Below, in pieces: positions 1 to 64,000 of a stretch of DNA of 64,000 nt (position 1 is the stretch's first letter; every line of letters starts with the position of its first letter). The translations under genes were made by a program, and so were the position numbers. The stretch spans positions 29,476 through 93,475 of IMG/VR virus record IMGVR_UViG_3300025131_000013. The stretch is one strand, 5' to 3'. Below the pieces are notes generated by a model. That model was not told where the DNA came from, made no database searches, and saw only the letters and a list, made by a program, of their open reading frames with translations. The DNA comes from a virus.

Positions 1-1
1 T

Positions 2-931
2 ACGACTGCTGGTGTCGGTGGTGACTTTCTTCCGGTCCCGTTGGCGAATACCTTTATTGATCTCGTAAGAGATCAGAACTGGGTCCGCCAACTGGTCCAG
101 ACCGTGCCGATGGGCTCCAAGACCCTTGATTTCCCAAAGATTCTAACAGGTCCGTCAGTGTATTACGAGTCAGCTGAGAATGCGCAGGCAGTAGAAACAA
201 GCATGACGACTGGTTCGGTGCGTCTGACAGCCAAGAAGCTCTTTGCGCAGTTAAAGGCGTCTGAGGAACTCTTTGAGGATGCTGCGTTCGATATGGATAC
301 GATCATCCGACAGCATTTCGTGAATTCCCTGGCTGATGCCGAGGAAGAAGCGTTTGTTGACGGTGAAACTACCCATACCGCCTCAGCAGTAACCCCAGGA
401 GCTGCTACGGAGTCCAATTGGTATACGAAAGATCACCGTCTGATTTTCGACGGGTTGGCTACACTCTCGACTGCCTCAGGGGCTGCAACGGGTGTCAACG
501 GCGCAGGTGCGTCGATTACTTCCGCTATGATTAGGGAAGCAATCTACAACCTGGGCGTTTATGCGCGTTCAATGAAGGATGTGGTTGTCCTTCTTAACCC
601 TTGGTCGGCGAACGAGCTTTTGGATGACGCCAAGCTCGTAACTCTCGACAAGTATGGTTCCCAGGCGACGATTTTCACGGGAGAAATTGGCCGGCTGTAC
701 GGCCAGGCACGCGTTCTGACCTCGCCGTATCTGGCAGACGGTAAGGGTGTGTTCTTCCACCGGGGTAATCCTCTGATTGGTGACCGCAGACTTGTGCGTC
801 TGCGCGGTGAGGATGTTATTGAGTATGATCAGCGAAGGCTGGTGATCTCAGAGCGTCTTGACTTCGTGGTGCAGTATGCTAACGCCATCGGCGAGATGTT
901 TAACTTGGATCGTCCTGGATCTGGCTCCTAA
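2..931 (+). CDS. Major capsid protein, HK97 fold (5' end outside window)
   Basis: Frame is open from base 2 (TTAGVGGDFLPVPLANTFIDLVR, typical GG.l.P capsid motif). Also VRLTAKKLFAQLKASEELFEDA, LADAEEEAFVDG and ISERLDF. Ends ...RPGSGS. Confidence 0.93.
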   Translation, partial: TTAGVGGDFLPVPLANTFIDLVRDQNWVRQLVQTVPMGSKTLDFPKILTGPSVYYESAENAQAVETSMTTGSVRLTAKKLFAQLKASEELFEDAAFDMDTIIRQHFVNSLADAEEEAFVDGETTHTASAVTPGAATESNWYTKDHRLIFDGLATLSTASGAATGVNGAGASITSAMIREAIYNLGVYARSMKDVVVLLNPWSANELLDDAKLVTLDKYGSQATIFTGEIGRLYGQARVLTSPYLADGKGVFFHRGNPLIGDRRLVRLRGEDVIEYDQRRLVISERLDFVVQYANAIGEMFNLDRPGSGS

Positions 932-955
932 CCATTAGGTTAAGACCAGACCTAA

Positions 956-995
956 ATGAAGGGGGCGGGGCTTTGGCCTCGTCCCTTTCATTGTA
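956..995 (+). terminator. Stem-loop after capsid gene (putative terminator)
   Basis: ATGAAGGGGGCGGGGC-TTTG-GCCTCGTCCCTTTCAT forms a 16 bp stem with G-U pairs; the U tract is weak. Confidence 0.6.
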
Positions 996-1019
996 TATAG
1001 TCTTAAAGGAGGTAGTTGG

Positions 1020-1154
1020 ATGAAAGAGGTATTTAAAAGTAAGACAGATGGAGAGCCGAAGCCGATCAAGAAAGAGATGATAGGCCAACGGACCCCTGAA
1101 GAGAAGAAGCGCAAGAAAGAGACAGAATTGAGGAAGGGATGTTTGATATATTAG
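1020..1154 (+). CDS. Small Lys/Glu-rich hypothetical protein (44 aa, not in ORF track)
   Basis: AAAGGAGG SD then ATG; MKEVFKSKTDGEPKPIKKEMIGQRTPEEKKRKKETELRKGCLIY*. Confidence 0.6.
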   Translation: MKEVFKSKTDGEPKPIKKEMIGQRTPEEKKRKKETELRKGCLIY

Positions 1155-1729
1155 GTGCAGTAAGCTCTATAGCGACAGGAGGATTAACTGGACTCATCGG
1201 GTCCGGTATTTCGCAGTTTATGGAGCACAGGAAGCAAAAGACTGAATACGCCCATCAGCTTGCTTCTCGTAGACTTGATCTAGAGATAGTTGAGAAGAAG
1301 GCAGAGCTTCAGATCAAGGTAAAAGAGACCGATGCGAATATCGCGCTTGAGATTGAGGCTGGAAAAGATTTTAGGAACTCATTTGATAACGATAAGGCTA
1401 GATATGTTGATTCTAGTCGGACTGGTGCTGTTGTTAACTTTCTTCTAGGGTGTGTGGATGTAATTAGAGGGATGATCAGGCCAGTAGCTACTATTTTCTT
1501 CAGCTATTTGACCTATTCTATCTCAGACTCCCTTTTGACTCTATTAGGGGGAATTGATCAACTTCCCAGAGAACAATTAGTTGATCTCCTTAATAGAGTC
1601 ACCCAAACAATACTGTATATCGCTACGACTTGTATTTTATGGTGGTTCGGAACTAGGCCACCAAAGATGAACCAATATACCGGAGGTGTCTATGCCGCAC
1701 AACGTGGCGAAGCACAGCGTTCTGGTTGA
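1139..1729 (+). CDS. Holin-like membrane protein (GTA 3TM-holin type)
   Basis: N-terminal amphipathic GLTGLIG, a coiled coil, then RGMIRPVATIFF TM and ILWWFGTR C-terminal motif. Confidence 0.7.
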   Translation: MFDILGAVSSIATGGLTGLIGSGISQFMEHRKQKTEYAHQLASRRLDLEIVEKKAELQIKVKETDANIALEIEAGKDFRNSFDNDKARYVDSSRTGAVVNFLLGCVDVIRGMIRPVATIFFSYLTYSISDSLLTLLGGIDQLPREQLVDLLNRVTQTILYIATTCILWWFGTRPPKMNQYTGGVYAAQRGEAQRSG

Positions 1730-1786
1730 CCCCGCATTTGTGTAGTTTTCGTCGTTAAGAGTAACGCCTAATCAGGAGTCAAGATT

Positions 1787-3910
1787 GTGAATAAGTTTGA
1801 AGGTAAGAATTTTGTGAATCCGGGCAATGTTAAGATTGATGATCCCAAGGCCGCGATTGCTATCGAAGCTCAGATCCTTTCGGATTTGATTATTGATCGA
1901 AAGCAAACCGGCCATGAATCATTGGGTGATAAGGATGCCCTGATCCAAGTAGCTCATGATGTTGATTGGGTTACTCTCCGAATAGCCAAGAGGCTTATTA
2001 AGGAGGCAGGACCACGAAAAGCTATCGCGCTTGCTCAACTAGCGTCAGGGAATCTCTTTACTCCGCATAACGAGATACGGACGATAGAGAGAAAGCCCGG
2101 GAAATCATGTGCATTCTTCTCTGACGGTCGTTCCTTCTATACGGGTGGTCGCTACAGCGTTTTTATGCACGCCGTCTTACTGGCCGAGGTGATGAATGTC
2201 ACTTGGCTGACTGATGAACCCCTTCCGTTTGAGTCAGACTTCCCAGATCATAAGGTCAAGGTCATTGAAGACGCTCGGATATTTGAGCGGAAGATGGAGG
2301 ATCTTGGTGTTGACTTTGTAGTTGGACTCCCCAATCTATCAGGACAAGCTGCAGCCGCTTATTCGGAGCAGTTCAAGATCCCCTATTATTTGGTGATGTT
2401 TGAATCGCCGAATTTCATCAAGGAGTTCAGGAGTGATGGGGAAGATGCGAAGGAAACCTACTGGACTGACTATAAGAAGTGTATGCGTGGTTGCGACGCT
2501 GTTATCGCTCATAGCAATGTTAGTGCGGACTTTACTCGTGATTGGCTCTCTGACGGAGAAGGTAGACTCCCTCCAGTCCGAGTAACTCACCCTACGTGGA
2601 ATAAGACAATACTTGACGCTGAACTGTTTAGCCAGCTCAAACCTAGAGAGGGTGTGGTAATTTGCTCCCGCTCTGCTCCGTTCAAAGATCCGTATGCTCT
2701 GCTAGTTGAGCTGGATAAGATAGGCTTTAAAGAGCGAGTGGTAATAATCGGAAAGACTTGGAAGACAGATCGTTACGAGAAGGATTGGTCTTTTGAGTTG
2801 ATCCTATACGGGACTATCTCAGATACTAGAAAGTTCTCGTATCTGAAGCAAGCCAAAGTTCTCGCTATGCCCTCCCAATTTGAAGGATTTGGGATGCCTC
2901 CAATGGAGGCACTGGCGTGCGGAACTCCGGTGATCGCTTATGATCTGCCCGTTCTTAAGTCGATTTATGAAGGGGAGATTGTCTACACCCCTATAGGTAA
3001 TGCTGGTTTGATGGCACGGCGTATAGTAGAGGCGTGTGATCCTGAGATCAGAGACATACCTTTCCAATCAAAGCCAATCCTCAAAAAGCTCTCCCCGCGT
3101 AGTGCGTTAACTTCCCTAAAGCGCGCCTTCCCAGGCCCATTAACACTTGGAGTAGGCATTATTGCCTACGATATAGGGGATTGGGTAGGAAAGGCAATTG
3201 AGAACGCCGCCCAGTATGCTGACGAGGTCTATATTGTCCACGGACGGTGCGCTGACTTCCCTGAAGCTCCTCACGGAGACCAGCATACGATTGAGGAGAT
3301 TGAGCACGCCATCTCTCAGATAGACGTTCCGGTGTTCTTCCATCGGCTGGGAGAGCATATCCCTCCGACTAAGGTTGCTCTCCAAAACTTCATCGCCGAA
3401 CGGGTTGAGACCGACATCTATATGAAGCAGGATGCGGATGAGTTCTGGCATCCAGAAGATGTTCAGAAGGCTCTGGAGATGTTCGTTGAGGATGAGGAAT
3501 TGGACATCATCCGAGTGTCCTGGCATCACTTCTGGAAGAATTTGAAGCAGGTTACTTGTGATGCCGGAGGTCAGTGGACGAATAAGCACCCTCGCTTCTG
3601 GAGATGGAACTCAGGGTTCTCCCATACCTTTACCCATAACAACTTTGTCGACGCAGATGGTATAGAAGTCAGACCACCGGACTATCCAGAGGTTGTAACA
3701 GACCTAACCTGCTATCACTGCGGGTATGCTCGGGGTGAAGAGTATGTCCAGCGCAAGATCGAGTTCTATCGGGATAGGGGAATTGAGAAGGATGTTAAAG
3801 ATACCTATACCGATTGGAAGCCTGGAGATCGGACTCAGCCTACCCAGCACGCTAATGTGAATAGCTGGGTCGAGCCGTTCAAGGGTAAGTTGCCGGAGAT
3901 CCTGAAATGA
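1787..3910 (+). CDS. Bifunctional glycosyltransferase (GT4 GT-B domain + GT2-like GT-A domain)
   Basis: MPSQFEGFGMPPMEALACGTPVIAYD is the GT4 Ex7E motif. The C-terminal half has LGVGIIAYD...KQDADEFW (DxD) ...CYHCGYAR. Confidence 0.9.
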   Translation: MNKFEGKNFVNPGNVKIDDPKAAIAIEAQILSDLIIDRKQTGHESLGDKDALIQVAHDVDWVTLRIAKRLIKEAGPRKAIALAQLASGNLFTPHNEIRTIERKPGKSCAFFSDGRSFYTGGRYSVFMHAVLLAEVMNVTWLTDEPLPFESDFPDHKVKVIEDARIFERKMEDLGVDFVVGLPNLSGQAAAAYSEQFKIPYYLVMFESPNFIKEFRSDGEDAKETYWTDYKKCMRGCDAVIAHSNVSADFTRDWLSDGEGRLPPVRVTHPTWNKTILDAELFSQLKPREGVVICSRSAPFKDPYALLVELDKIGFKERVVIIGKTWKTDRYEKDWSFELILYGTISDTRKFSYLKQAKVLAMPSQFEGFGMPPMEALACGTPVIAYDLPVLKSIYEGEIVYTPIGNAGLMARRIVEACDPEIRDIPFQSKPILKKLSPRSALTSLKRAFPGPLTLGVGIIAYDIGDWVGKAIENAAQYADEVYIVHGRCADFPEAPHGDQHTIEEIEHAISQIDVPVFFHRLGEHIPPTKVALQNFIAERVETDIYMKQDADEFWHPEDVQKALEMFVEDEELDIIRVSWHHFWKNLKQVTCDAGGQWTNKHPRFWRWNSGFSHTFTHNNFVDADGIEVRPPDYPEVVTDLTCYHCGYARGEEYVQRKIEFYRDRGIEKDVKDTYTDWKPGDRTQPTQHANVNSWVEPFKGKLPEILK

Positions 3911-4785
3911 GGATTTGTATAATCAGGAACAATAATCCGGGGCACGTCCAGATAGCAGATATGCTCTGGAGGTCAGCCTTAAGACTAGGGCATACTCCTG
4001 TTCTTGCCGGGGCAAATGATATGTCCCCAAGACCAGCGGATATGACCATCCTAGTCAATATCGTCCCTAAAGCTATGGCGGCAGTCAATAAGGCTACTGG
4101 GACTCTCGGCAGGATACGTAATAAGGTGTATATCAATCTTGAGAACTTGCCTTTTGCCGAGGGCAGTGGTCAGTTCGAGAGATACAGGATCAAAGAGTTT
4201 AACGCCCAGATAGAGATTTTCAATCCTGGCTGCGTAACACTCTGCGACCCCGGAGTGTATGATCGGGTGTCCCTTAAGAAGCTAGGCGTGATGATGCCTC
4301 GCCAGTTCTACGATAAAGGGTTCTTGTATGATCCAGACTTCCATAGGGATCTAAGGATGCTTAAGGATTTGGGAGCTTGTTTTATAGGGAGCTTGAGCGA
4401 GGACAGGAAAGAGAAGTTGGCGTCTATTCGGAAGGTGAATGTCTTTCGATCCTGGGGGTATGAGAAGGTATCCTTGATGAACCGACACGCCATCTCCCTG
4501 AACTTCCAAAAGCGGGATGAGCACAACTTCAAGACGTATAGGGCAGTAGACGCGATAATGTGTGGGTGCCTGTTCTTAACAGAGCAGGATGACTTCCATA
4601 CTACTTTCCCTGATGATTGTTATGTCTCAGTCCCGATAGAGGATATGCCTGAGGCGGTGGAGTATTATCTTGAACACTCCAACGAGAGGGAAAAGATAGT
4701 AGGTTTGGCCCAGGAGTTCATCAAGAGTAATTTTGGAGTAGACCAGTATCTAAGTGGACTAGTAGAGGAATTTCAAGATGCCTGA
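3907..4785 (+). CDS. CgeB-like (Glyco_trans_1_2) glycosyltransferase
   Basis: ACFIGSLSEDR...ISLNF...RAVDAIMCGCLFLTE...VEYYLEHSNEREKIVGLAQEFI. Confidence 0.8.
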   Translation: MRICIIRNNNPGHVQIADMLWRSALRLGHTPVLAGANDMSPRPADMTILVNIVPKAMAAVNKATGTLGRIRNKVYINLENLPFAEGSGQFERYRIKEFNAQIEIFNPGCVTLCDPGVYDRVSLKKLGVMMPRQFYDKGFLYDPDFHRDLRMLKDLGACFIGSLSEDRKEKLASIRKVNVFRSWGYEKVSLMNRHAISLNFQKRDEHNFKTYRAVDAIMCGCLFLTEQDDFHTTFPDDCYVSVPIEDMPEAVEYYLEHSNEREKIVGLAQEFIKSNFGVDQYLSGLVEEFQDA

Positions 4786-6070
4786 TAAAGTTGATGGCTT
4801 GCGGGATATAGTGAATAATCTGAAGAAGAAGGATCGAGACTCCACTATCTTGTTCACCGAAGAAGAGATCATGGAGATTCGTCACGGTCAATCTTCAGAA
4901 GAGGACAGGAAAGCCTTGTTTGATGCCGTCAGGGAGAGGCCAGGATTCCAAGCTCCTGGAGCAGCAGCTCACGCCAGCAGACCGGAGATGATCGCTAGAG
5001 AAGGGCAGGAGAATATGACTAGTGATCAACTAGCTGATCTCCTTATGCTCAAGCTACAGGTAACTCCTCAGCACAAGATACCTTTCACGGGGACTAAGGT
5101 CAATGTCAATAGTTGGTCTAACGCGACTAGGACATTCAGATGTTGGGGAGACTACTGGGCCTGGATGCAATTGGGTCGTGCGTTTACTGAATTGGGCTAC
5201 CATTTTAATGTTGATCCTGGGATCTCTGACGTCACAGTGTATCTGAGGGGCGGTCGATTCAAGACCGACGATCATTGGCAGGTCCCAAATCGGATCAACC
5301 CAAATACCCACAATATTGTCTGGATCTATTCTCATCCGGACGACATATCGAGTCTTGAGCTTCGGGACTACGATGAGGTATGGTGCCTCTCCCAGAAAAT
5401 GGTCGATCAAGTTCAGGCTTACGGGCACAAGGGATTAGTTGAGACTCCTATTACTTCGTGCACAAACATGGTGGAGCCTTCTACAGTCGATGACCGCTTC
5501 GACGTAGTATTTATCGGGAATGCCCGAGGTCAGACAATTAACGAGGATGGTAGGGACGTCATCCAGATGCTGAAGGATCGATCGGATCTAAACGTAGGCA
5601 TCTACGGGATGAAGTGGGATCTCCCTCATCTTAGCTGGGTAGTAGATCGAGGATGGTGGCAGGGTGACTACTACGCCTACTACAAGCTACCAAGACTCTA
5701 CAGCGGAGCAAAGGTAGTCCTGAATGATACTCACCCCGATATGGCTAGGTTCGGGTTCATCCCGATGAAGCTATTCGATATCATTAGATCAGGTGGATTC
5801 CCGATCACGGACGGCATCGCTGGTCTTGAGGAGAAGCTCCCAGAGATAGCTGTCTATGAAAGCAAGAAGAATCTCAACGATCTGATTGACTATTACCTGG
5901 AGGAATCAGACGAGCGGACTGAGAGACAGCGCGATATGTGGTATCGTATCAAGGATGATACCTTTACCGCAAGAGCAGCAGAAGCAGTCGAGAGTTCTCA
6001 TTACGAGGGATGGAAGTCAAGAGAGTCAGTATCGCAGGAGATGTTCGATGTCCACCGAGTTGAAGCTTGA
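4778..6070 (+). CDS. CgeB-like glycosyltransferase with N-terminal extension
   Basis: WGDYW, DVVFIGNARG, YSGAKVVLNDTHPDMARFGFIPMKLFD, IDYYLEESDER, TFTARA. Confidence 0.85.
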   Translation: MPDKVDGLRDIVNNLKKKDRDSTILFTEEEIMEIRHGQSSEEDRKALFDAVRERPGFQAPGAAAHASRPEMIAREGQENMTSDQLADLLMLKLQVTPQHKIPFTGTKVNVNSWSNATRTFRCWGDYWAWMQLGRAFTELGYHFNVDPGISDVTVYLRGGRFKTDDHWQVPNRINPNTHNIVWIYSHPDDISSLELRDYDEVWCLSQKMVDQVQAYGHKGLVETPITSCTNMVEPSTVDDRFDVVFIGNARGQTINEDGRDVIQMLKDRSDLNVGIYGMKWDLPHLSWVVDRGWWQGDYYAYYKLPRLYSGAKVVLNDTHPDMARFGFIPMKLFDIIRSGGFPITDGIAGLEEKLPEIAVYESKKNLNDLIDYYLEESDERTERQRDMWYRIKDDTFTARAAEAVESSHYEGWKSRESVSQEMFDVHRVEA

Positions 6071-6641
6071 GGTAGGGTGCGGCGGTAGATTGCCTGGAGG
6101 CTATATCGGAGTAGATATAGTCCAGACTAAGGCAGTCAAAGGGAAGCCGTTTATCTATGGTGAGGCTGCTAAGATACCGTTTCAAAGCGGGACGGTAGAT
6201 GAGGTATCCTGCTGTCATATGGTAGAGCATCTTGACCCTAGATACTTTGTGAGTTGTCTACTTGAATGGCGTAGAGTTCTGAAGGTAGGCGGGGCGTTGG
6301 TTATCCAATGCCCTAATGCTATTGTCTACCTAGAGGAACTTCTTGAGTTCTTTAGAGATGGTGGATTACCTCGCGCACCACGGCTAGAGCCGCAGAGGTA
6401 TCCAGATGAGATGAAGAACCGACCGTATGAGATGTGGCCTATAATCCAGGTCACCGGACTTGCTTCGATAGGAGACCATATGGTTAATCGGAATCACTTC
6501 TCTATAGAGCATCTGAGATTCTACGTCGAGATATACGGTGGCTTTGAGATAAAGGAAGCCAAAGTCAAAAGGACTAGGCAGAGTCACGGAATCGAACATC
6601 GACCTGACGGAGATTTAATTGTCCGAGGAACAAAAAGATGA
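6048..6641 (+). CDS. Class I SAM-dependent methyltransferase (glycan-cluster type)
   Basis: Likely start MSTELKLEVGCGG; GYIGVDI, CHMVEHL, EWRRVLKVGGAL. Confidence 0.85.
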   Translation: MSTELKLEVGCGGRLPGGYIGVDIVQTKAVKGKPFIYGEAAKIPFQSGTVDEVSCCHMVEHLDPRYFVSCLLEWRRVLKVGGALVIQCPNAIVYLEELLEFFRDGGLPRAPRLEPQRYPDEMKNRPYEMWPIIQVTGLASIGDHMVNRNHFSIEHLRFYVEIYGGFEIKEAKVKRTRQSHGIEHRPDGDLIVRGTKR

Positions 6642-7651
6642 TCAAGGTATTCTATGTAGACGCTTTTGCCCAAGAGAGGTATTCAGGCCCCTTTAGGCTC
6701 AAAGGATTCGAGTTGGCTAAGTTCGATGCGGTTGCGTTTGATTACCGACAGATCGGATATACTCACGGGGAGCTAGGGCTGAATCACTCTCTACTCAATT
6801 CTTTGAGGGTTTTCAGACCGGATGTTATATTCGTCAACAAGGGGCACTTCGGGATTAATCAGAAGGTGCTAAGGCAGTTCCTTGACGATAATCCTCATAC
6901 TATGCTCATCACTTGGACCGGAGATCAGCGCGGGACGGTAATGGATGAGGTAGTTCCCTGTGCTCAACTCTCTCATGTCCTTGCCCATAGTAATGACGAT
7001 CCTAAGTTGGCTAAAGGGTATAATGAGGTGGGCGTCCCTAACGTAATAGAGCATCATTGCGCTACGGACGTTGAGGTGTATAAGCCTCACGATGCCTGGC
7101 CGCAATCAATGGAAGGAGAGGTATCCTTCTTTGGCAGCCAATACGGGGCGTATCCTCTTAGCGGGTTCAGGGATGAAGTCCTGAAAGCTGTTGATAAGGA
7201 GTATGACCTAAAGCTGTATGGAGGAAACTGGGAGAGGGTGTTTCCGGGCAAGCTGACTAGCCAAGCCCATCGAGATAGATACGCTTTGGCTGCCTCCGGC
7301 TGTAATATCCAACTCTGTGTCAATGCCTTCAATAATATCCACCGCTATACGTCGAATCGGGTATGGAACGCTTTGGCGTGCGAGAGGCTTGTTTTACAGC
7401 ACCATTTCGCCGGGGCTGAGTCTTTATTGGGTCCAGGTTGTGAGAATGTAGTATACTTCCAAGATACTGATCAGTGCCTGGCGCTTATTGACTACTATCT
7501 GGCCCATAAGGATGAGGCCCAGGAGATAGCAGCCAGAGGCAGGAAGTTTGTTGAGGAGGCTCATACCTACTACCATCGGGCTATGGAGCTAAAGGATATA
7601 TACGACAAGTGGATGGAGGATGATGCCTGGTCCTTCAACAGGAGGGGATAA
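6638..7651 (+). CDS. CgeB-like glycosyltransferase
   Basis: FRPDVIFVNKG, WTGD, VSFFGS, LKLYGGNW, SNRVWNALAC, IDYYLAHKDEAQEIAARGRKFVEEAHTYYHRA. Confidence 0.88.
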   Translation: MIKVFYVDAFAQERYSGPFRLKGFELAKFDAVAFDYRQIGYTHGELGLNHSLLNSLRVFRPDVIFVNKGHFGINQKVLRQFLDDNPHTMLITWTGDQRGTVMDEVVPCAQLSHVLAHSNDDPKLAKGYNEVGVPNVIEHHCATDVEVYKPHDAWPQSMEGEVSFFGSQYGAYPLSGFRDEVLKAVDKEYDLKLYGGNWERVFPGKLTSQAHRDRYALAASGCNIQLCVNAFNNIHRYTSNRVWNALACERLVLQHHFAGAESLLGPGCENVVYFQDTDQCLALIDYYLAHKDEAQEIAARGRKFVEEAHTYYHRAMELKDIYDKWMEDDAWSFNRRG

Positions 7652-8481
7652 TGCCTGATGCTTTTTGGCAAACTCCGGAGTTTCTGGAATTCTTGACTAA
7701 AGGTAAGGTTGAGAAGACCAGATATAATCTGAATGTGGATGATCTATCTCCTGCTATACCAAGGAAAGAATCTACAGACATCCTATTCAAGCTATTCAAG
7801 CTATACCCCGGTTTAAAGGTGGATGCCTTTGTAATCCCTGACTGGAGAGGCGAGGCCTGTGTTAAGGACTACCCTGGTTGGATACAGGAAGTCAAGACCC
7901 TGGTCGATATGTTCGATCTGAGGCTCCACCACCACGGGCTTAACCATGATTTCAATCAAGGCTTTAGGACAGAGTTCTCGGATAAGTCAATAACTGAATG
8001 CGAGGACATTATAATAAAGGCCGTAGAGGTCTGGAGCAAGGTAGGGTTGGATGTAGGGATGGAAGTCTTCAGGTCACCTAGATGGGTTAGCAGCACGAAC
8101 CTTTTGGATGCTTGTAAGAATCTAGGGTTCAAGATAATTGGCCTAAATTGGAGGCAGCATCCGGCAGAAGTATGGAAGAGGGGGATGGATGTAGTATATA
8201 GCAATTTCTACTACGCCAATACCCCGACCTACCCAAGCGGCAAGGCTAAGGATAAGGATCTCCACCAGTTATGGTCTGATTTCTCTAACGAGAGGATCTG
8301 CCACGCTCACTTCGGGCATCTAGGATACGATGCCTTGAGGAAAAGAGTAGACAACACAAAGGTGGACATAAGAGATATGATCCTTTACGGGGCAGACTAC
8401 GTGTATCTGGAAGAAGCAACTTCTTTCCGAGAGGTGGTGAAAAATGCAAATCCCGCTGTTCAAGCCGCATGTCAACCCTAA
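7651..8481 (+). CDS. Polysaccharide deacetylase-like protein (NodB/DUF2334 type)
   Basis: LNVDDL, AFVIP, HHHGLNH metal motif, EF, VFRSPRW. Confidence 0.8.
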   Translation: MPDAFWQTPEFLEFLTKGKVEKTRYNLNVDDLSPAIPRKESTDILFKLFKLYPGLKVDAFVIPDWRGEACVKDYPGWIQEVKTLVDMFDLRLHHHGLNHDFNQGFRTEFSDKSITECEDIIIKAVEVWSKVGLDVGMEVFRSPRWVSSTNLLDACKNLGFKIIGLNWRQHPAEVWKRGMDVVYSNFYYANTPTYPSGKAKDKDLHQLWSDFSNERICHAHFGHLGYDALRKRVDNTKVDIRDMILYGADYVYLEEATSFREVVKNANPAVQAACQP

Positions 8482-9586
8482 AGCCCTAAAGGGATTAGCC
8501 GATATATTTGAGTCCGGTTGGACGGGTCTTGGCCCAAAGACTGAGGAGTTTGAAGAGGCTTTCTGCGAATATACCGGGGCTAAGTATGCGGTAGCTGTCA
8601 ACTCGTGTACAGCAGCCCTACACTTAGCCTTAATTTGCGCTGGATCAAGGGATGAAGAGACAGTCATATCAACTCCTATGACTTTTGTTTCGTCCAATGA
8701 GGCTATTAAGTATACCGGGGCATACGTTGATTTCGCAGACGTATGTTCTGAAACGCTTAGTATGGACCCCAAATCTTTACAAAAGATGTGCGAGGATCAA
8801 GGGCCACCGAAGGTTGTAGTTGTAGTCCACTATGGTGGCTCTCCGGCAGAAATTGATTCTTTTTCTAGTCTCCAAGATCAATACGGCTTCGAGATTGTAT
8901 GGGATTGCGCCCATGCTATGGGTGCTTCTCATAGGGATAGGAAGCTGGGATCTTTTGAGAAGTTTGCCTGCTTCTCTTTTCACGCGGTAAAGAATCTAGG
9001 GATTGGTGACGGAGGGATGATAGCGACGAATGATCAAGAGGTCTATGAGCGTCTCAAGCGTCTAAGATGGATGGGCGTTGATAGCTCGACTTACGAAAGA
9101 TCCTCAAACGGAAAGTATAAATGGTTGTATTCCGTAGATGAGTTGGGGTATAAGTATCACATGAACGATGTCATGGCTACGATTGCTTTGGCTCAGCTTA
9201 AGGATCTAGAGTGGCAAAACGAGAGGCGCAGGAATTTAGCCCTCCAATACCAGCATTTTCTCGTAGACCAATGGGCTTCTAATGGGGATCTGCAGATCGT
9301 TAATCCTTATAAGTCAGATAGGGAAAATGCCCAGCACCTGTTCGTTATACGGGTGAAGAAGGGGGCAAGGGACGGCTTACATAACTATTTGGCTAAAAGA
9401 GGGATCACTACCGGGGTCCATTATTACCCGAACCACCTATACAAGATGTTTTACGGGCAGTACCAGTGCCAGCAGGCTTGCTTGGCATTTGAGGAAATCC
9501 TTAGCCTACCGATGTATTGGCAGATGGAAACTGAGGAGCAGACTTATGTTTGCGAAGCAATTAAGTCCTATTTTAACGCTGTCTGA
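8444..9586 (+). CDS. DegT/DnrJ/EryC1/StrS PLP-dependent sugar aminotransferase
   Basis: AVNSCTAALHLAL, DCAHAMG, FSFHAVKNLGIGDGGM (PLP Lys), GYKYHMND, LSLPMY. Confidence 0.96.
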   Translation: MQIPLFKPHVNPKALKGLADIFESGWTGLGPKTEEFEEAFCEYTGAKYAVAVNSCTAALHLALICAGSRDEETVISTPMTFVSSNEAIKYTGAYVDFADVCSETLSMDPKSLQKMCEDQGPPKVVVVVHYGGSPAEIDSFSSLQDQYGFEIVWDCAHAMGASHRDRKLGSFEKFACFSFHAVKNLGIGDGGMIATNDQEVYERLKRLRWMGVDSSTYERSSNGKYKWLYSVDELGYKYHMNDVMATIALAQLKDLEWQNERRRNLALQYQHFLVDQWASNGDLQIVNPYKSDRENAQHLFVIRVKKGARDGLHNYLAKRGITTGVHYYPNHLYKMFYGQYQCQQACLAFEEILSLPMYWQMETEEQTYVCEAIKSYFNAV

Positions 9587-9590
9587 TAAG

Positions 9591-10145
9591 ATGGCGATTA
9601 AAAATCTTGTTCCAAAGGAGCAAGATAAGGTTCCTGTAACTCAACTTCGATGGATGATGGATCTGAGGAATAGGGATCAGGGCGTCCGGGATGCTCTAGG
9701 GATAGAGGGGCAACAGACTTGGGAAGAGCAATTGGCTTGGTACAAGGGTTTCATCTTCGACCATAAATCAGCTATTTATATGATTCACTACGGCAGTAAT
9801 TTTGCCGGATACTTGAACTTTACAGCTCTTGATCTAAAGGGAAGGCACACTGAGATAGGGATTAAGATGACTGAGGCCTACCGGGGACAGGGGATAGGGA
9901 GGCAAGCCTTCGAGTTCTGGTGTGATATGCTTACCAAATACTATAACCTGAATAAGCTCTACCTTTGGGTAAGGGAGCATAATTTACCCGCAATAGGCCT
10001 GTATGAGTCTATGGGTTTTGTTGAAACAGGGCGCCACAAGGCTCACTTTTATGATGATGAATCAGGTCATTGGAGCGATTATATCTTAATGTCTCTGTAC
10101 CATATTCTCTTTACGCCTTCAACTATAGAGAAGAAGGATGGTTGA
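9591..10145 (+). CDS. GNAT N-acetyltransferase (PseH-like)
   Basis: QTWEEQLAWY, EIGI, YRGQGIG (AcCoA motif), NLPAIGLYESMGFVETG. Confidence 0.88.
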   Translation: MAIKNLVPKEQDKVPVTQLRWMMDLRNRDQGVRDALGIEGQQTWEEQLAWYKGFIFDHKSAIYMIHYGSNFAGYLNFTALDLKGRHTEIGIKMTEAYRGQGIGRQAFEFWCDMLTKYYNLNKLYLWVREHNLPAIGLYESMGFVETGRHKAHFYDDESGHWSDYILMSLYHILFTPSTIEKKDG

Positions 10146-10198
10146 TTCTATCCAAGGTTGTTGGTATAAGTTAGCGACCGAACTATTTCAGGAGAAAT

Positions 10199-10834
10199 GT
10201 GATGCCCTACGCTGTAGCAAATGACGCCGCGTCTCTTGCTGGCCTACAGGCTGGTGATGTAACAGCGGCCCACGCAACCCTAGCAGACGATATCGTTGAC
10301 TCTCTGATGAATAGGGTGCCGGATGGTTTTAATCAAGTCACAGCTTCTGCGGAGTCACACACAGTGCGTATCGCTGGAACGCGTGAGCTTCTATTAAATC
10401 ATCATCCGGTGATTTCTATTACTACGGTGGTAGTGGACGCCAGGGCTTCTAATCCTACCACTCTAAATTCGGGTAACTATAGAGAGGAAAATGGAATCCT
10501 CAAGTTAGTTACCCCGGCTGCGGTGAACGCAGGGATAGAGTGGGTTTCTTCATGGCCAGTTGGAATCGAGCAAGTTGATGTCACCTACGAATACGGATAT
10601 TCGTCAACTCCTGCTCTGATAGTCCAACTGGCTAATATTATCGCCGGAGAGATTGGCAAGAAGGCTAATCAAGCAGCCAATCAGCCAGCCTCCGGAGCTT
10701 CAAAAGTCCGAATCGGAGACTTTGAGGAGCAGTATGCGTCCGGATCAATGGACGCTATTACTCAAATGCTTACTGAAACAGGCAAGGTAATCCTTGCTCA
10801 AGCGAACTTAATTTATCGGGAGTATCGCTACTGA
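10199..10834 (+). CDS. Head-tail connector/adaptor (gp6/gp15-like)
   Basis: LLLNHHPVISITTV...VDVTYEYGYSSTPALI...KVRIGDFEEQY; position before stopper and tail genes. Confidence 0.75.
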   Translation: MMPYAVANDAASLAGLQAGDVTAAHATLADDIVDSLMNRVPDGFNQVTASAESHTVRIAGTRELLLNHHPVISITTVVVDARASNPTTLNSGNYREENGILKLVTPAAVNAGIEWVSSWPVGIEQVDVTYEYGYSSTPALIVQLANIIAGEIGKKANQAANQPASGASKVRIGDFEEQYASGSMDAITQMLTETGKVILAQANLIYREYRY

Positions 10835-11199
10835 TGGCTATCCAGATCCCGACAATATATCTGAATCGGATAGCAACAATTACACGACCTGCCGATCCTT
10901 CAACTGCTGATGCTTCTGGTGTGATCGGAGCACACACTACTGTTTCATTAGTTGCTAAGATAAGGATCTACCAGAACGATGATTATGGAGGTCGGACTGG
11001 TAAGATTGAAGAACAGGGTGTTGTAGCCGCTTCCTCGCATAAGGCGGTAGTTGGTGCGAACGAGGATGTATTAGCTGGAGATACGCTGGTAGATAATGCT
11101 ACAAGTGAGTCCTTTTCAATTAACCTAGTAGATAGTCAGCCAGCAGGATACGTAGGCTCTCATAAAGAGATTTGGCTGACTTCGTCAGAGTATAAGTAA
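10834..11199 (+). CDS. Head closure/stopper protein
   Basis: LNRIATITRP...DVLAGDTL...HKEIWL; synteny. Confidence 0.65.
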   Translation: MAIQIPTIYLNRIATITRPADPSTADASGVIGAHTTVSLVAKIRIYQNDDYGGRTGKIEEQGVVAASSHKAVVGANEDVLAGDTLVDNATSESFSINLVDSQPAGYVGSHKEIWLTSSEYK

Positions 11200-11642
11200 T
11201 GGCTTCTAACAGACACATCTTTAGTGTAAGGTGGATAGGCATACCTAGCGCAATTATTAGCTTCCAGAATGAATTTAACGCAATTATTCGTGAAGCTAGG
11301 ACAGTTGTGAAGAATACAGCTAACCGGACAGCTAGGAAGTCAGCTACTGCTCTTAGGCGAGGCAGGTATAAGGCGTATCAGTCAGGGAGACTTGCTAGTG
11401 CCCACTCGGTTGCTGAAATGATGAATACAAATACGATAAAGACATATAGGGTTGCTAACACCTCAGACTACGCTCTGTTTATTCATAACGGGACCAAAAG
11501 GATGGCTGGTAGGCCGTGGCTCCGAGGAACGCTGAACGGAGAAATACCTAAGTTTACTAAGGATATCAGGGCTGTGGTTGCTCGTAAGAAGACAGTTGAG
11601 GTTGGGTCAGCACCTTCGTTATCCTTTACGGCTGGAAGGTAA
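11199..11642 (+). CDS. HK97 gp10-like tail completion/neck protein
   Basis: SGRLASAH...DYALFIHNGTKRMAGRPWL motif. Confidence 0.8.
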   Translation: MASNRHIFSVRWIGIPSAIISFQNEFNAIIREARTVVKNTANRTARKSATALRRGRYKAYQSGRLASAHSVAEMMNTNTIKTYRVANTSDYALFIHNGTKRMAGRPWLRGTLNGEIPKFTKDIRAVVARKKTVEVGSAPSLSFTAGR

Positions 11643-11645
11643 GAG

Positions 11646-12080
11646 ATGCCAGCAATTGCCCAAGATGATTATTTAATACAAGCCGCAATAGCCTATCTTC
11701 TGGCTGATGCGGATGTTTCTGGTATAGTAGGAACGGATGTATACCAGAAAGATACGGAACTCGTTGGGGTAACACCACCTTACGTGACCGTGGGATTCGA
11801 TTTTGAATCCAAAGTTTTAGGAATCTCGTCAAATAGGGGAACTTTCACGGTGATATGCTGGTATGCGGATAGTCCGTCTACCAACATCACACTACTCCGT
11901 CAACTGGCAGCAGAGGTTCGTAGGTTGTTCGACGTAGAGCACGCAGTTTCCTCCATTTTATCATATAAGAGCGGCCTCAAACTGCGCTACTCATCTCTAC
12001 GTGACTCTCCAGTCTTAGTCGATACAACCGACAACCTGTATTGGTGTCCAGCTGAGTTTGACGCTATTCTAGACACCTAA
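11646..12080 (+). CDS. Tail terminator protein
   Basis: QAAIAYLLADADVSGIVGTDVY...PPYVTVG; immediately upstream of tail tube. Confidence 0.75.
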   Translation: MPAIAQDDYLIQAAIAYLLADADVSGIVGTDVYQKDTELVGVTPPYVTVGFDFESKVLGISSNRGTFTVICWYADSPSTNITLLRQLAAEVRRLFDVEHAVSSILSYKSGLKLRYSSLRDSPVLVDTTDNLYWCPAEFDAILDT

Positions 12081-12100
12081 CTACGAAAGGAGGTGGAAAA

Positions 12101-12592
12101 TTGGCTGTTCAGTTCGGTATTGCTACGATGAAGATGACGCCGCAGACTGCGGGCGGATCTCCTGACTCTAATGTAGGTCCGATCACCATGGGAATTCTTC
12201 AGAATGTGTCGTTGGACTTCTCGTTCGACTTTGCACAGCTATACGGTGGTTCTGGAGTGTTCCCGGTAGATGTTCGCGTCCATACAGGTTCTATTAACGG
12301 TCAGGCTGAAGAAGCTGAGATGACCGGCATCTTCTTCGCTTTATTGACTGGCGGGACTCAATCGAACGCAACGGTGACATTCACGAATACTACTCAGCCA
12401 ACGGAGTGGCAGCTTGAGTTGGAATTGGCTACGGATAGTTCGGATATGAACTTTACGTTGAATGCTTGCCGTTCTTCGTCGTTCAATGTCCCGTTCGCCC
12501 GTGATAGTCATGTTATTACCGGATTTCAGTTCCAGGCTTTTGCCGATAATAGCGGTAATATCGGAACACTTGTGATAGATGATCCAAGCTAA
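12101..12592 (+). CDS. Major tail tube protein
   Basis: Strong SD AAGGAGG + TTG. Beta-rich (LQNVSLDFSFDFAQLYG...FQFQAFAD). Followed by a terminator and the chaperone/TMP genes. Ends ...DDPS. Confidence 0.8.
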   Translation: MAVQFGIATMKMTPQTAGGSPDSNVGPITMGILQNVSLDFSFDFAQLYGGSGVFPVDVRVHTGSINGQAEEAEMTGIFFALLTGGTQSNATVTFTNTTQPTEWQLELELATDSSDMNFTLNACRSSSFNVPFARDSHVITGFQFQAFADNSGNIGTLVIDDPS

Positions 12593-12619
12593 GTAGTTAA
12601 GAACACCCAACAGGCCTGT

Positions 12620-12654
12620 AGGGTGGCGGCGCTTGGGTCGTCACCCTCCTTTAC
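12620..12654 (+). terminator. Putative intrinsic terminator after tail tube gene
   Basis: AGGGTGGCGGC-GCTTGG-GTCGTCACCCT 11 bp stem followed by CCTTTAC. Confidence 0.65.
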
Positions 12655-12669
12655 TACGGAGTAGTCAAG

Positions 12670-13182
12670 ATGAATGCACCAATAAAGAAGCATAAGAGTA
12701 AGAAGAAACGCCGTCCAGAGACACCTCTTGAACCTGAAGCCGTAAAGGAAGTGGAGGATGAAGAGGAAGCTGGTGTGTTTGAGGAAGAGGATGAACTCTC
12801 TGTTTTGGAAATAGCCTCTGATCTTGATGGCACTCCACGGCCAGATGAGAACTTTGTTCTTAAGATCAATGGTAAGGACTACAAACTCGTTCCTGCTACC
12901 TTACGAGACATCCCGAAGTTGGGTGGTCTCGTTCAGTCGATTACTGCCTCGGCTGAGGATGAAGATGAGATGTCTTTCTTCTCTGAAGAGAAAGTCAATC
13001 TCGTTGCTGAACTAATTCTACTTTCCCTCTCGAAAAAAGATCGCAAGAAGGTCACAATAGACGACATTCTTGATTCTTGTCAGTTTGCAGACTTTCCGTT
13101 GGCGCTTCAGGCTTGTCTAAGTCTGAATGATTTTTTAAGAAGGATGGGTCAAGTCAAGAGGACGATGGAGAGCCTGGTCTAG
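12670..13182 (+). CDS. Tail assembly chaperone (gpG-like)
   Basis: Between tail tube and TMP; LKINGKDYKL; slippery site near 3' end. Confidence 0.8.
   Translation: MNAPIKKHKSKKKRRPETPLEPEAVKEVEDEEEAGVFEEEDELSVLEIASDLDGTPRPDENFVLKINGKDYKLVPATLRDIPKLGGLVQSITASAEDEDEMSFFSEEKVNLVAELILLSLSKKDRKKVTIDDILDSCQFADFPLALQACLSLNDFLRRMGQVKRTMESLV
13131..13137 (+). promoter_or_regulatory. -1 programmed ribosomal frameshift site T TTT TTA
   Basis: In-frame GAT TTT TTA; the -1 frame is open (KKDGSSQEDDGEPGLVDPYHIAMTM...) into the 13203-13670 ORF. Confidence 0.85.
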
Positions 13183-13670
13183 TCGATCCTTATCATATAG
13201 CTATGACAATGTATGTGTTCTGTAGCGAATGTGGCTGGAAGCCAAAAGACTTCTTTGACTTAACTCGCAGGCAAATGAATGCCCTTATGAAGGGGCGAGA
13301 GAAATGGTTCAGACAAAAAGCGAAGGCAGAGGAAGATGCTGAGAAGGGCATCAAGCCTAGAGAACCTGTAAAAGGCGGTAACTATCGAACCAGAGCGGAA
13401 AATATCCACTATAATAAGGAGGCAGGAAACGCTTCGATTGTCGGTGGTAGCGAGATTAGTAAAGCGATAGAGGTTGCCGGCGATAAGGGCAAGATATCAG
13501 TTAGCTCCACCGGGGGAATGTTTGAAGGTCTTTCTAAGGCAGGCGGGATGGATACGAAGGTCTGGAGAGGCGGGGTCAAGAGGAAGGATCGACCCAAGAG
13601 TCAGAAGGAAAAGATAGCAGCAATCAAACGGGAAATGGCTCATAACGAAAAGCACTACGGGATAGACTAA
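13137..13670 (+). CDS. Tail assembly chaperone C-terminal part (gpT-like, made as G-T fusion)
   Basis: CGWKPKDFFDLTRRQMNALM matches the gpT-like W...f..lT..q motif; no clear own SD. Confidence 0.78.
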   Translation, partial: KKDGSSQEDDGEPGLVDPYHIAMTMYVFCSECGWKPKDFFDLTRRQMNALMKGREKWFRQKAKAEEDAEKGIKPREPVKGGNYRTRAENIHYNKEAGNASIVGGSEISKAIEVAGDKGKISVSSTGGMFEGLSKAGGMDTKVWRGGVKRKDRPKSQKEKIAAIKREMAHNEKHYGID

Positions 13671-13671
13671 G

Positions 13672-16600: not shown

Positions 16601-17127
16601 AGCAGAGAAGAAGGATTCAGCAGGACGCAAACGAGCAGATAGGGTCGGCCTGGACTAAATTATGGGAAGGCCTCAAGAGATCCTTCATACGGAATATCCT
16701 ACAGTCGATGGAGCGTAGTCTACGTGAGTTCATCAAGAGAGCAATCTTAAGGCTGGCTGCTCTCAGGCTAGGAGAGGCTGCGGCGCGTAAGGAGGGTGGC
16801 GGGATGCTTACCTTCCTGAAGGTATTGGGGACGTTCGCTTCAATAGCGTCCGGCAATCCGTTGCCTGCTCTAGCTGCTGGATCTATCGATCAAGTAGTAG
16901 GAGGAGGTGGTGGTGGTGCCGGACCTGGGACGCATCGTAGTCCTGATTCAGTTCCATTTGCTGGCAAACCAGCTTTAGGCAGAGGTGAAGGCATTACGGT
17001 AGTGATCAATAATGATGGTCTTATGAGAGGTGCTCTTGTTATGGCAGACGATCCAGAGATTATGGATCGAGTTGTCAGGAATACGCTTGAGCCGGCCATC
17101 GCTAGAATTCAATCAGAGAACTTGTAA
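13672..17127 (+). CDS. Tail tape measure protein (TP901 family)
   Basis: FEQSIANVASV...TIFTANQAADAMYVLGSAG...MKFVAPVARAAG...GISASTAG; Ala-rich coiled coils with hydrophobic segments. Confidence 0.95.
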   Translation: MPSKVASIFADIGVVLGGFNRGMQAIKSSFLTLNNVAGDSEAILRQAGFALTAVSVAAAALGRVTIKTFVEFEQSIANVASVLDGMDSDFEALESAARKAAIQTIFTANQAADAMYVLGSAGLETGEIFSALEPILALAAATQAEIADSARLVVSAMVAFQIPFSDTARAANAFAAAIANSQATMDRLTNSMKFVAPVARAAGISFEQTTAALSQLLDAGISASTAGVYLRGIMLSLQNPTMRARGAIRSLGLSMEDVSPQVNDLAQIIQNLESVQAGAVDKGDELADIFGRRYTTAMQVLIRLGSTALRDFEAGITGTNKAFDLQMVQITTVKGGWLLLKSVLQDLAIGLGKVLLPALDFVTKSLRGMFLLINEAFNALPPILQKAVVGFGALATVLIAVLGPLALFVGFLPKMALGIGLIAGTIASSIAPFIAWAGAIGLAVTAIAGATAAFMAFRKGSESGIKRPVEETMSVLRAFEQRVDRTNFLLDEYAQGGEKAAHAAGELGRMFVGVEMSTTAMGKALTVNTVAIREQIQAERELIDIKRQSLATDLLTNIDQEVKKRDELIERVRISERVYEGSLRVARGMVAIGNQSAAATKKQNDRLSAATRTREADVNALEAQEKALSNTIAQFVRAELGITSGEISLEEFTAAVVAARPALAALAPELYKIFQQNQKLNKSGGGSTQRDRAERLKAETDIQKARFGAVAAANALIQDELERALAANNLALDKALADAEKRGKEVAVSLGETIGLAHEGRLAENAFKRKDAADKKARDAAEKRAIASAERIARVRNQFEQQSNAAIAVSRANMIADIDQREMAQLKARFANQIVAIKRFVDENAELSVEGKRLANLRILTLEQELIFKEDELRVKQAERREDERKAEVKRLKKERDKALSEDNQLQETMAVIDGILGDFSRDIQDIVLDGLFGGNKEVDRRTRDRLQDLDEFHRQQKARLAGNSSALMALERDVAEQRRRIQQDANEQIGSAWTKLWEGLKRSFIRNILQSMERSLREFIKRAILRLAALRLGEAAARKEGGGMLTFLKVLGTFASIASGNPLPALAAGSIDQVVGGGGGGAGPGTHRSPDSVPFAGKPALGRGEGITVVINNDGLMRGALVMADDPEIMDRVVRNTLEPAIARIQSENL

Positions 17128-63846: not shown

Positions 63847-64000
63847 GGGATACGCCAAGATGAGCGTGAAGGAACTGGAAGCCGCTCTGGCCCCTGAAGA
63901 GGAAGAGGAGGAACTGGAAGACGAGTTGGACGAAGAACTCGACGACCTGGAGGATGAGGATGAGGATGAGGATGAGGATGAGGATGATGATGATGACGAC
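63794..64000 (+). CDS. Rho_N/HeH-like domain protein with acidic tract (3' end outside window)
   Basis: AGGAG SD; MATKKEKLLAAAKKAKVKGYAKMSVKELEAAL then poly-D/E to the window end. Confidence 0.7.
   Translation, partial: MATKKEKLLAAAKKAKVKGYAKMSVKELEAALAPEEEEEELEDELDEELDDLEDEDEDEDEDEDDDDDD

Follow-up and report, generated by a model that had tools for sequence, protein, structure and literature searches.

The window, a 64,000-nucleotide stretch of viral DNA, begins within a structural operon whose order, portal-protease-capsid-[island]-adaptor-tube-tape measure, is that of a siphovirus. The portal and protease genes lie upstream of the capsid gene, which starts 61 nt before the window, occupies positions 1–931 (+ strand), and encodes a 330-residue major capsid protein of the HK97 type (PF05065, E 2.5e-24). 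The island spans positions 1787–10145 and consists of eight + strand ORFs in one co-directional run, mostly overlapping, with successive gene junctions of −4, −8, −23, −4, −1, −38 and +4 nt. Four of the genes encode glycosyltransferases, one a GT4+GT2 fusion and three CgeB-like; the products of the other four are a SAM methyltransferase, a DUF2334/deacetylase-like protein, a DegT aminotransferase, and a GNAT. The GC content of the island (0.477) equals that of the window, with no compositional break. The initial annotation had described an eight-gene glycan island between the capsid and head-tail genes, organized as a tightly coupled operon; all eight ORFs and both flanks are as it described, and the shared orientation and junctions of −38 to +4 nt agree with tight coupling. 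Its placement of the island after the capsid gene is correct insofar as the island is inside the structural operon, but the two are not directly adjacent, with a hairpin and two ORFs intervening. Judged only by gene position, the island is probably expressed late.

The intervening segment begins with a perfect 17-bp hairpin (955–992, + strand) right after the capsid stop codon, and the region containing it (925–1145) has a minimum folding energy of −61.8 kcal/mol (z −3.4), with none of 200 shuffles folding equally well. The hairpin was not called by a consensus terminator scan, and its possible roles include attenuation and mRNA stabilisation; across positions 1–13700 the consensus promoter and terminator scan gave a signal no higher than in shuffles. 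Two ORFs follow, one for 44 residues (1020–1154) and one encoding a 196-residue protein (1139–1729, + strand; phrog_6637, E 3.6e-20) in a slot, variable in content, that lies past the capsid gene and ahead of the island. In a relative whose capsid is 86% identical (L003) the same slot is occupied by a GTA_holin_3TM gene, without significant similarity to the 196-residue ORF; the latter was considered as a three-TM holin and rejected, there being no Pfam match and no TM segment at KD19>=1.6. The downstream boundary of the island is a head-tail adaptor gene (10199–10834, + strand; phrog_442, E 2.6e-13), followed by a Neck1-like gene (11199–11642), a gene for a 163-residue probable major tail (tube) protein (12101–12592, + strand), and the tape measure gene (13672–17127). 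The tube assignment comes from a phrog_8234 match (E 1.8e-11) and from its position ahead of chaperone-like genes and the tape measure.

The first island gene (1787–3910, + strand) encodes the 707-residue GT4+GT2 fusion. Its GT4 half is assigned by Pfam (Glycos_transf_1, E 2e-14; 53.9 bits, with the cut-off at 26.4) and contains the E-x7-E motif; its best matches include TarM, PimA and PglA-type enzymes. The proposed fusion thus stands for the GT4 half by Pfam, whereas the GT2 half of the window copy does not reach significance there (E 0.039) and is recognized as a putative GT2 through its homologues, which reach E 1.2e-11 with PF00535, through an invariant DxD motif, and through a fold model (pLDDT 87) with GT-A matches; the GT-A hallmarks are present. 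Across 29 fusion sequences E366 and E374 of the GT4 half and D549 and D551 (the DxD) of the GT2 half are invariant, and two homologues (P0002 and P0003) share 66–67% identity. The nearest solved relatives of the GT2 half are GmaR (profile E 5.7e-6) and SunS/ThuS, which occupy Foldseek ranks 1–6 (E 8e-11 to 5e-9); these are the top matches by both profile and fold, sharing the GT-A fold and DxD motif, yet identity is only 14–17% and the TM-score about 0.5. Listeria GmaR is a flagellin O-GlcNAc transferase, and SunS and ThuS are glycocin S-glycosyltransferases; the phage enzyme differs from them in the fusion of its GT2 domain to a GT4 domain. Megablast and tblastn searches of GenBank phages with the region, the fusion and one CgeB-like gene gave no match (50,697 phages in the case of tblastn).

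The other seven genes are all on the + strand. Three encode CgeB-like glycosyltransferases, of 292 residues (3907–4785; PF13524, E 3.5e-11, 43.7 bits), 430 residues with the domain at residues 261–399 (4778–6070; E 1.3e-12, 48.3 bits), and 337 residues (6638–7651; E 8.9e-22, 78 bits). All exceed the gathering cut-off of 25 bits for PF13524 (Glyco_trans_1_2), so that the three CgeB-like enzymes and the total of about five GT domains that had been proposed, counting the GT4 and GT2 halves of the fusion, both hold. None of these proteins has a match among PDB sequences, and membership of the CgeB family is therefore by Pfam domain only. For the CgeB protein of Bacillus subtilis, sugar transfer to the self-assembling crust surface protein CgeA is reported, with weak activity and a physiological donor that is not known (PMC13577073). 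The SAM-dependent methyltransferase gene (6048–6641, with 6048 the most likely start) encodes about 197 residues with the SAM motif LEVGCGG and a Methyltransf_11 match (E 2.2e-8), and the DegT/DnrJ/EryC1-type PLP sugar aminotransferase gene (8444–9586, 380 residues) a PF01041 match (E 4.2e-93); both are as first annotated. The best NCBIfam match of the aminotransferase, PseC (UDP-4-amino-4,6-dideoxy-AltNAc transaminase), scores 299.9 bits, below the cut-off of 423.5, and identifies it as a DegT-family member only. Two other assignments needed revision. The 276-residue product of positions 7651–8481, initially called a NodB-like deacetylase, is a putative polysaccharide-deacetylase-like protein, with DD and HxxxH motifs visible, and is better placed in DUF2334: the direct Pfam match to Polysacc_deac_1 is weak (E 0.091), a 46%-identical homologue carries PF10096, and the Atlas comparison to DUF2334/Polysacc_deac clusters gives a feature score of 0.95 and a TM of 0.69. 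The 184-residue acetyltransferase (9591–10145, most likely starting at 9591 or alternatively at 9546) is a GNAT (PF00583, E 4e-14), but a generic one, since its PseH score of 45.2 bits is below the NCBIfam cut-off of 93.1.

In related IMG/VR contigs that include upstream DNA, the fusion always follows the same capsid family, as do both full-length matches found among 185,579 species genomes, and in this combined set it is located 10–4001 nt past the capsid gene; full-length copies are absent elsewhere among those species genomes. The position of the island within the structural operon is fixed clade-wide, and the adjacency of fusion and capsid gene could simply be inherited gene order.

The initial annotation had argued against O-antigen seroconversion because no flippase or GtrA component was present, and this is confirmed genome-wide: the whole 93-kb genome (100%-complete) encodes no GtrA, Wzx, priming phosphoglycosyl transferase (Bac_transf) or integrase (PF04138, PF01943, PF02397 and PF00589 are all without matches), and the island proteins contain no TM segments. 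Gtr-type seroconversion, by contrast, employs a GtrA flippase and a membrane GtrC in a temperate phage. A role for the island in remodelling an envelope glycan of the host, be it LPS, capsule, teichoic acid or S-layer glycan, for superinfection exclusion or release, is compatible with the presence of GT4, GT2, DegT, GNAT and, in relatives, pyruvyl transferases, all typical of polysaccharide loci, and with the enzymes most closely matching the GT4 half; these same genomic absences, the location of the island among the late structural genes of a phage that appears to be lytic, and the restriction of the fusion to phage contigs beside one capsid family make it quite improbable. The genome also lacks a 4,6-dehydratase and a nucleotidyltransferase, so the substrate of the DegT enzyme must be supplied by the host. 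The single hint as to that host comes from a contig that had been binned in a 'Chloroherpeton thalassium' MAG, possibly a binning artefact; with a genome GC content of 47.7%, this is not a typical actinobacteriophage.

The extreme C termini of two virion proteins provide candidate targets. The capsid protein of the window ends in RPGSGS (terminal Ser codon 926–928), with its last nine residues forming coil in a structure model. All 33 non-redundant capsids that precede the fusion end in Ser, and the entropy of the terminal position is zero, compared to 2.1–3.1 bits over the preceding 11 positions. The tube protein ends in VIDDPS (terminal Ser codon 12587–12589), and tube proteins likewise end in Ser in 10 of 10 cases (nine non-redundant homologues plus the window copy), mostly as GDxS; none of 14 head-tail adaptor homologues does. 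We propose from these sequences that the capsid Ser is the acceptor and the tube Ser a second one. Relatives without the fusion have a capsid ending in Ser in only 3 of 17 cases; in L064, one of these, the capsid gene is directly followed by a different GT2 gene, and in another, L059, a GT2 gene lies about 9.5 kb downstream. GT2 or CgeB-like domains also occur elsewhere in relatives with non-Ser capsid ends, and an iterated HMM of the tube protein recovered no homologue from relatives without the fusion.

Enzyme and terminal Ser are both traits of the clade, and the capsid tree shows only about three changes in them, so that their co-occurrence could stem from shared ancestry alone; an independent-pairs test relating GT to terminal Ser on this tree offers three informative pairs (p = 1) and has no power. 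This leaves room for the island to be an auxiliary metabolic cassette that was passed on by descent and has no virion target in particular, the Ser being kept for an unrelated structural reason. We regard this as highly improbable, as the core enzyme is retained even in islands of one gene, and the same terminal-Ser pair is present in two unrelated phages reported from experiment to be glycosylated, Che8 (capsid ending in TGS, tube in DGS) and Corndog (VGS and GDS). For both of these, glycans at the capsid and tail-tube C termini are reported in PMC12619734 and PMC11600133, which cite Freeman 2023. It is also conceivable that the enzymes act on other phage proteins instead of, or besides, the capsid and tube, such as secreted adhesin-like proteins or the tail fibres. 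With five GT domains, more than one acceptor could be served, and a 531-residue fibre-like protein (29797–31392) ends in Ser (VFGS), one of 13 such proteins among the 115 predicted for the genome. Terminal-Ser conservation, however, was tested and found for the capsid and tube proteins only, and the fusion is linked with the capsid gene and not with fibre genes; we thus consider such targets unlikely.

Virion glycosylation, as the initial annotation suggested, is favoured by the clade-wide position in the structural operon, the proximity of the GT2 half to polypeptide glycosyltransferases, and the lack of GtrA, Wzx, priming transferase and integrase, the glycan itself being inferred. Specifically, these sequences indicate that capsid and tail tube are probably O-glycosylated at their C termini, in the cytoplasm, with a tailored oligosaccharide. 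The island would be a phage-encoded system that operates late in infection, in the cytoplasm of the host, on the proteins of the phage's own particle, with the fusion as the proposed priming and first-extension enzyme. Its GmaR/SunS-like GT2 half would read the free, flexible C-terminal tail of capsid and tube subunits and place the first sugar on the terminal Ser, an acceptor different from the flagellin and ribosomal peptide used by GmaR and SunS/ThuS. The GT4 half would add the next sugar, and the three CgeB-like transferases would lengthen the chain, bringing all five GT domains into use. DegT and GNAT may start from a keto-sugar nucleotide made by the host and produce from it the donor of an N-acetylated amino-deoxy sugar, and the methyltransferase and DUF2334 deacetylase-like enzyme would tailor the glycan; the specific sugar is proposed by analogy with PseC/PseH and viosamine. 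In some relatives the minimal system would be the fusion alone. Mimivirus builds a tailored particle-surface glycan on its fibrils through viosamine and bacillosamine pathways, with an aminotransferase, an N-acetyltransferase, a methyltransferase and GTs; the same kinds of virus-encoded genes are present here, a likeness in the kinds of genes, although that eukaryotic giant virus has its own dehydratase, which is absent here.

A fourth CgeB-like gene, the one match to PF13524 outside the island besides the three within it, adjoins ThyX-like and FAD-oxidoreductase genes (genome positions 672–3948). This neighbourhood would suit transferases that hypermodify the phage DNA with a glycan, a modification that GTs of other phages are reported to make (Pyle et al. 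2024, as cited in PMC12619734). The island itself is in the structural operon, distant from replication genes, the GT2 half resembles peptide and not DNA glycosyltransferases, and DNA modification leaves an invariant terminal Ser on two virion proteins unexplained, so this too appears very unlikely.

The closest parallel to glycosylation of capsid and tube is the virion O-glycosylation described for the mycobacteriophages Che8 (Cluster F1) and Corndog (Cluster O) in PMC11600133, PMC12619734, PMC11256854 and PMC4351075, citing Freeman et al. 2023 (Cell Host Microbe 31:1216). These phages too encode one or more glycosyltransferases, with a methyltransferase in Corndog, compared to five GT domains and one SAM methyltransferase here; the enzymes are soluble and without export machinery, and Ser is the last residue of both the capsid and the tail-tube subunit, a feature known in our phage from sequence alone. 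The glycan genes of Corndog also interrupt the head-gene operon, there between portal and protease. Nonetheless, the enzymes are not homologous, with no tblastn match in the 50,697 phage records and different Pfam families (a TylF-like O-methyltransferase, a GT2-like enzyme and a GT25 enzyme in Corndog, in place of the GT4+GT2 fusion and CgeB-like proteins), and neither the Che8 nor the Corndog capsid has any sequence relationship to the window capsid. Our island is larger, adding DegT and GNAT genes for nucleotide-sugar tailoring and a deacetylase-like gene, and varies strongly between relatives, and glycosylation was shown experimentally in the mycobacteriophages, whereas here it is read from the genes.

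In the literature searched, glycans on phage particles have been demonstrated for mycobacteriophages only. We think it somewhat better than an even chance that virion glycosylation reaches beyond the actinobacteriophages, to an environmental siphovirus lineage with an O-antigen-like, fast-diversifying locus anchored by the GT4+GT2 fusion, whose GmaR/SunS-like half reads a single C-terminal Ser on capsid and tube. If so, the phenomenon extends to uncultured environmental phages, the mycobacteriophages arrive at the same acceptor logic through unrelated enzymes and capsids, and a terminal Ser plus a GT is a convergent and predictable signature of sugar-coated particles, simple to recognize by a Ser at the end of both the capsid and the tube protein and a transferase gene within the structural operon. 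It would also raise the question of what a sugar coat does outside an animal host, with shielding, adhesion and stability as candidate roles. The fusion alone offers a minimal, one-gene version that is testable in E. coli, and a C-terminal-Ser transferase could serve as a protein-glycosylation tool.

Around the fusion, its conserved core, the island varies among the relatives, from that gene alone (L013 and L019) up to about 12 kb. Island contents in these relatives are all glycan-related, and include GT2, CgeB-like, methyltransferase, pyruvyl transferase, DegT and GNAT genes. Homologues of the second CgeB-like protein are present in six islands (L006, L010, L011, L015, L027 and L105), those of the methyltransferase in three (L015, L027 and L105), and the DegT-GNAT pair recurs in four (L010, L011, L015 and L105). 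That the accessory genes turn over so rapidly suggests that glycan diversity is under selection, and different glycans are therefore expected in related phages.

The source contig (93,475 bp, viral in IMG/VR, CheckV completeness 100%), of which the window covers bases 29476–93475, carries its large genes on the + strand throughout, in the order portal, protease, 191-aa ORF, HK97-type major capsid protein (MCP), glycan island, head-tail adaptor, Neck1-like protein, 163-aa probable major tail protein (MTP), chaperone-like proteins, tape measure and fibres. The phage is a siphovirus, and a search of its genome for a tyrosine integrase gave no match. Both contig ends (genome positions 1–100 and 93376–93475, the latter being 63901–64000 of the window) lie within GAAGATGA-type repeats that code for runs of Asp and Glu; assembly probably stopped within a single gene of acidic repeats, in a genome that is circularly permuted or circular.

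The run of eight ORFs described in the initial annotation is present at 1787–10145, with junctions of -4, -8, -23, -4, -1, -38 and +4 nt, and the GC content of the island equals that of the window. Three elements separate it from the MCP gene: a perfect 17-bp hairpin (955–992, z -3.4) directly 3′ of the capsid stop codon, a 44-aa Lys-rich ORF (1020–1154) with a strong AAAGGAGG ribosome-binding site, and a 196-aa ORF (1139–1729, a phrog_6637 gene) whose 5′ start is overlapped by the 44-aa ORF. The slot occupied by this last gene is itself variable; in the related locus L003, whose capsid is 86% identical, it holds a GTA_holin_3TM gene (L003:11210–11638) unrelated to the phrog_6637 gene, and elsewhere among the relatives it holds 0–4 differing small ORFs.

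The first island gene (1787–3910) encodes a 707-aa fusion of GT4 and GT2 glycosyltransferases. Pfam assigns the GT4 half; the GT2 half is not called in the window copy, where the C-terminal 270 residues score E 0.039, and is instead supported through homologues, motif and model. A 36%-identical fusion homologue has a GT2 domain at E 1.2e-11, PF00535 is present in most of the 34 homologues, the GT2 DxD (D549, D551) and GT4 E-x7-E (E366, E374) show no variation across 29 sequences, and the structure model of the GT2 half, built on 23 sequences, has a pLDDT of 87. The best PDB match of the GT2-half profile is GmaR (E 5.7e-6), followed by SunS, and in Foldseek the SunS and ThuS chains occupy ranks 1–6 (E 8e-11 to 5e-9) with generic GT-A enzymes next, near 1e-7. 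GmaR, SunS and ThuS transfer sugars to polypeptides. Matches of the GT4 half are only generic ones, such as TarM and PimA.

Elsewhere in the island the three CgeB-like transferases (3907–4785, 4778–6070 and 6638–7651) all match PF13524 over cut-off, and Pfam also confirms the SAM methyltransferase and the DegT aminotransferase (E 4e-93). The supposed PseH-like protein is a GNAT by Pfam; PseC and PseH rank high in NCBIfam for the DegT and GNAT proteins, but both fall under the equivalog cut-offs. The candidate NodB-like deacetylase (7651–8481) matches Polysacc_deac_1 only at E 0.09; its sole homologue carries DUF2334 and the ESM Atlas groups it with DUF2334/polysaccharide-deacetylase clusters (features 0.95, structure TM 0.69). 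The protein after which PF13524 is named, CgeB, reportedly has a weak modifying activity on the crust protein CgeA (PMC13577073).

The 34 fusion homologues are all metagenomic, 588–828 aa long and identical in architecture. Searching IMG/VR with a profile recovered 25 fusion loci, and adjacency of the island to capsid genes, which the initial annotation had put forward as a check, holds in them: an MCP homologue precedes the fusion wherever upstream DNA is present, and the adaptor, MTP and tape measure lie 3′ of it wherever the locus DNA extends that far. An MCP-profile search added 79 loci and left this arrangement unchanged. Among 185,579 prokaryote species (one genome each), the full-length fusion occurs in only two contigs, both phage-like MAG contigs with MCP then fusion, and the remaining matches are generic GT4 domains. 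We note that the same phage lineage includes a 59.6-kb contig (L105, DYLM01000005.1) assigned to a sulfidic-cave MAG named 'Chloroherpeton thalassium'; it has capsid, fusion, methyltransferase, CgeB-like, DegT and GNAT genes, and its binning is an artefact or else points weakly to the host.

In its smallest form the island is just the fusion (loci L013 and L019), and in L015 it reaches about 12 kb. The additional genes of the relatives are a shifting set of GT2, CgeB-like, CmcI-like and several other methyltransferase, polysaccharide pyruvyl transferase, DegT and GNAT genes, and the fusion is therefore the core of the island; the other genes are a fast-changing glycan-tailoring set. Polysaccharide pyruvyl transferases (PF04230) are found in two relatives (L008:7297–8043 and L009:13813–14625), which suggests that their glycans are pyruvylated and hence negatively charged. 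That the island is a cassette with no virion target is an unlikely alternative. GT2 or CgeB-like domains occur in fusion-less relatives too, in very large ORFs elsewhere; transferases per se are thus not diagnostic.

All 33 non-redundant MCPs that precede a fusion end in Ser, with zero entropy at this position and 2.1–3.1 bits at the 11 positions before it, and in the MCP model the final nine residues are coil, beyond the last strand. The window MTP and all nine of its non-redundant homologues likewise terminate in Ser, mostly as GDxS; of 14 adaptors, none does. About 11% of the predicted proteins in this genome end in Ser. Other phage proteins are less likely acceptors. Seventeen MCP relatives lack the fusion and have 2.5 kb or more of DNA downstream; three of them end in Ser and the other 14 in A, I, L, P, V or Y. 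On the tree of MCPs there are about three changes in fusion presence and about three in terminal Ser, and an independent-pairs test is powerless; the association is consistent, yet statistically not independent of ancestry. Two of the Ser-terminated, fusion-less loci have a GT2 gene, about 9.5 kb downstream in L059 and, in L064, immediately 3′ of the MCP gene together with a UDP-glucose-dehydrogenase-like gene (L064:4705–6866), where the GT2 (PF13641) seems to have replaced the core enzyme. Locus L073, with neither fusion nor terminal Ser, has a collagen-repeat protein gene soon after the capsid gene (L073:9268–10377), and its head may be decorated by protein rather than glycan.

Three papers describe glycans on mycobacteriophage capsid and tail-tube C termini, attached by phage transferases (PMC12619734, PMC11600133, PMC11256854), and the system proposed here would be of this kind. 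In sequence records the capsid and tube proteins end in ...TGS and ...DGS in Che8 and in ...VGS and ...GDS in Corndog, and are Ser-terminated like the MCP and MTP here. The MCP family has no significant profile similarity to the Che8 or Corndog capsid, and the common terminal Ser is therefore not inherited. In Corndog an O-methyltransferase and three transferases lie between portal and protease and split the head operon (PMC4351075), an interruption similar to that seen here, although the enzyme families differ (TylF-like, GT2-like and GT25). What is new, relative to the literature searched, is the enzyme set and the lineage, together with an island of this size and variability that has a single-gene core.

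Beside the observed enzyme identities, synteny and Ser signature, we infer an acceptor, order of steps, timing and sugar identities as follows. The terminal Ser of MCP and MTP would be O-glycosylated in the cytoplasm, with priming by the GT2 half of the fusion and extension by its GT4 half and by the three CgeB-like enzymes. An N-acetylated amino sugar would come from DegT and GNAT, and tailoring of the chain would fall to the methyltransferase and the DUF2334 enzyme. Epimerase/dehydratase, Polysacc_synt_2 and NTP_transferase domains are absent from the genome, and DegT thus presumably depends on the host for a keto-sugar nucleotide as its substrate. Remodelling of the host envelope by the island is an unlikely alternative to virion glycosylation; the absence of export genes and the lytic gene set argue against it. 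No GtrA, Wzx-type flippase or Bac_transf priming enzyme was found genome-wide, and the island proteins lack transmembrane segments, one DegT stretch being borderline over threshold. DNA glycosylation by the island is a further unlikely alternative, considered mainly because a fourth CgeB-like gene (L102:2035–2943, L102 being this genome; PF13524 E 1.7e-20), outside the window, adjoins ThyX-like and FAD-oxidoreductase genes (genome 672–3948). Its upstream neighbour is FAD/NAD amine-oxidase-like (genome 672–2042) and the ThyX-like gene lies on its other flank (genome 3034–3948); this fourth enzyme may act on a non-virion target, possibly nucleotides or DNA.
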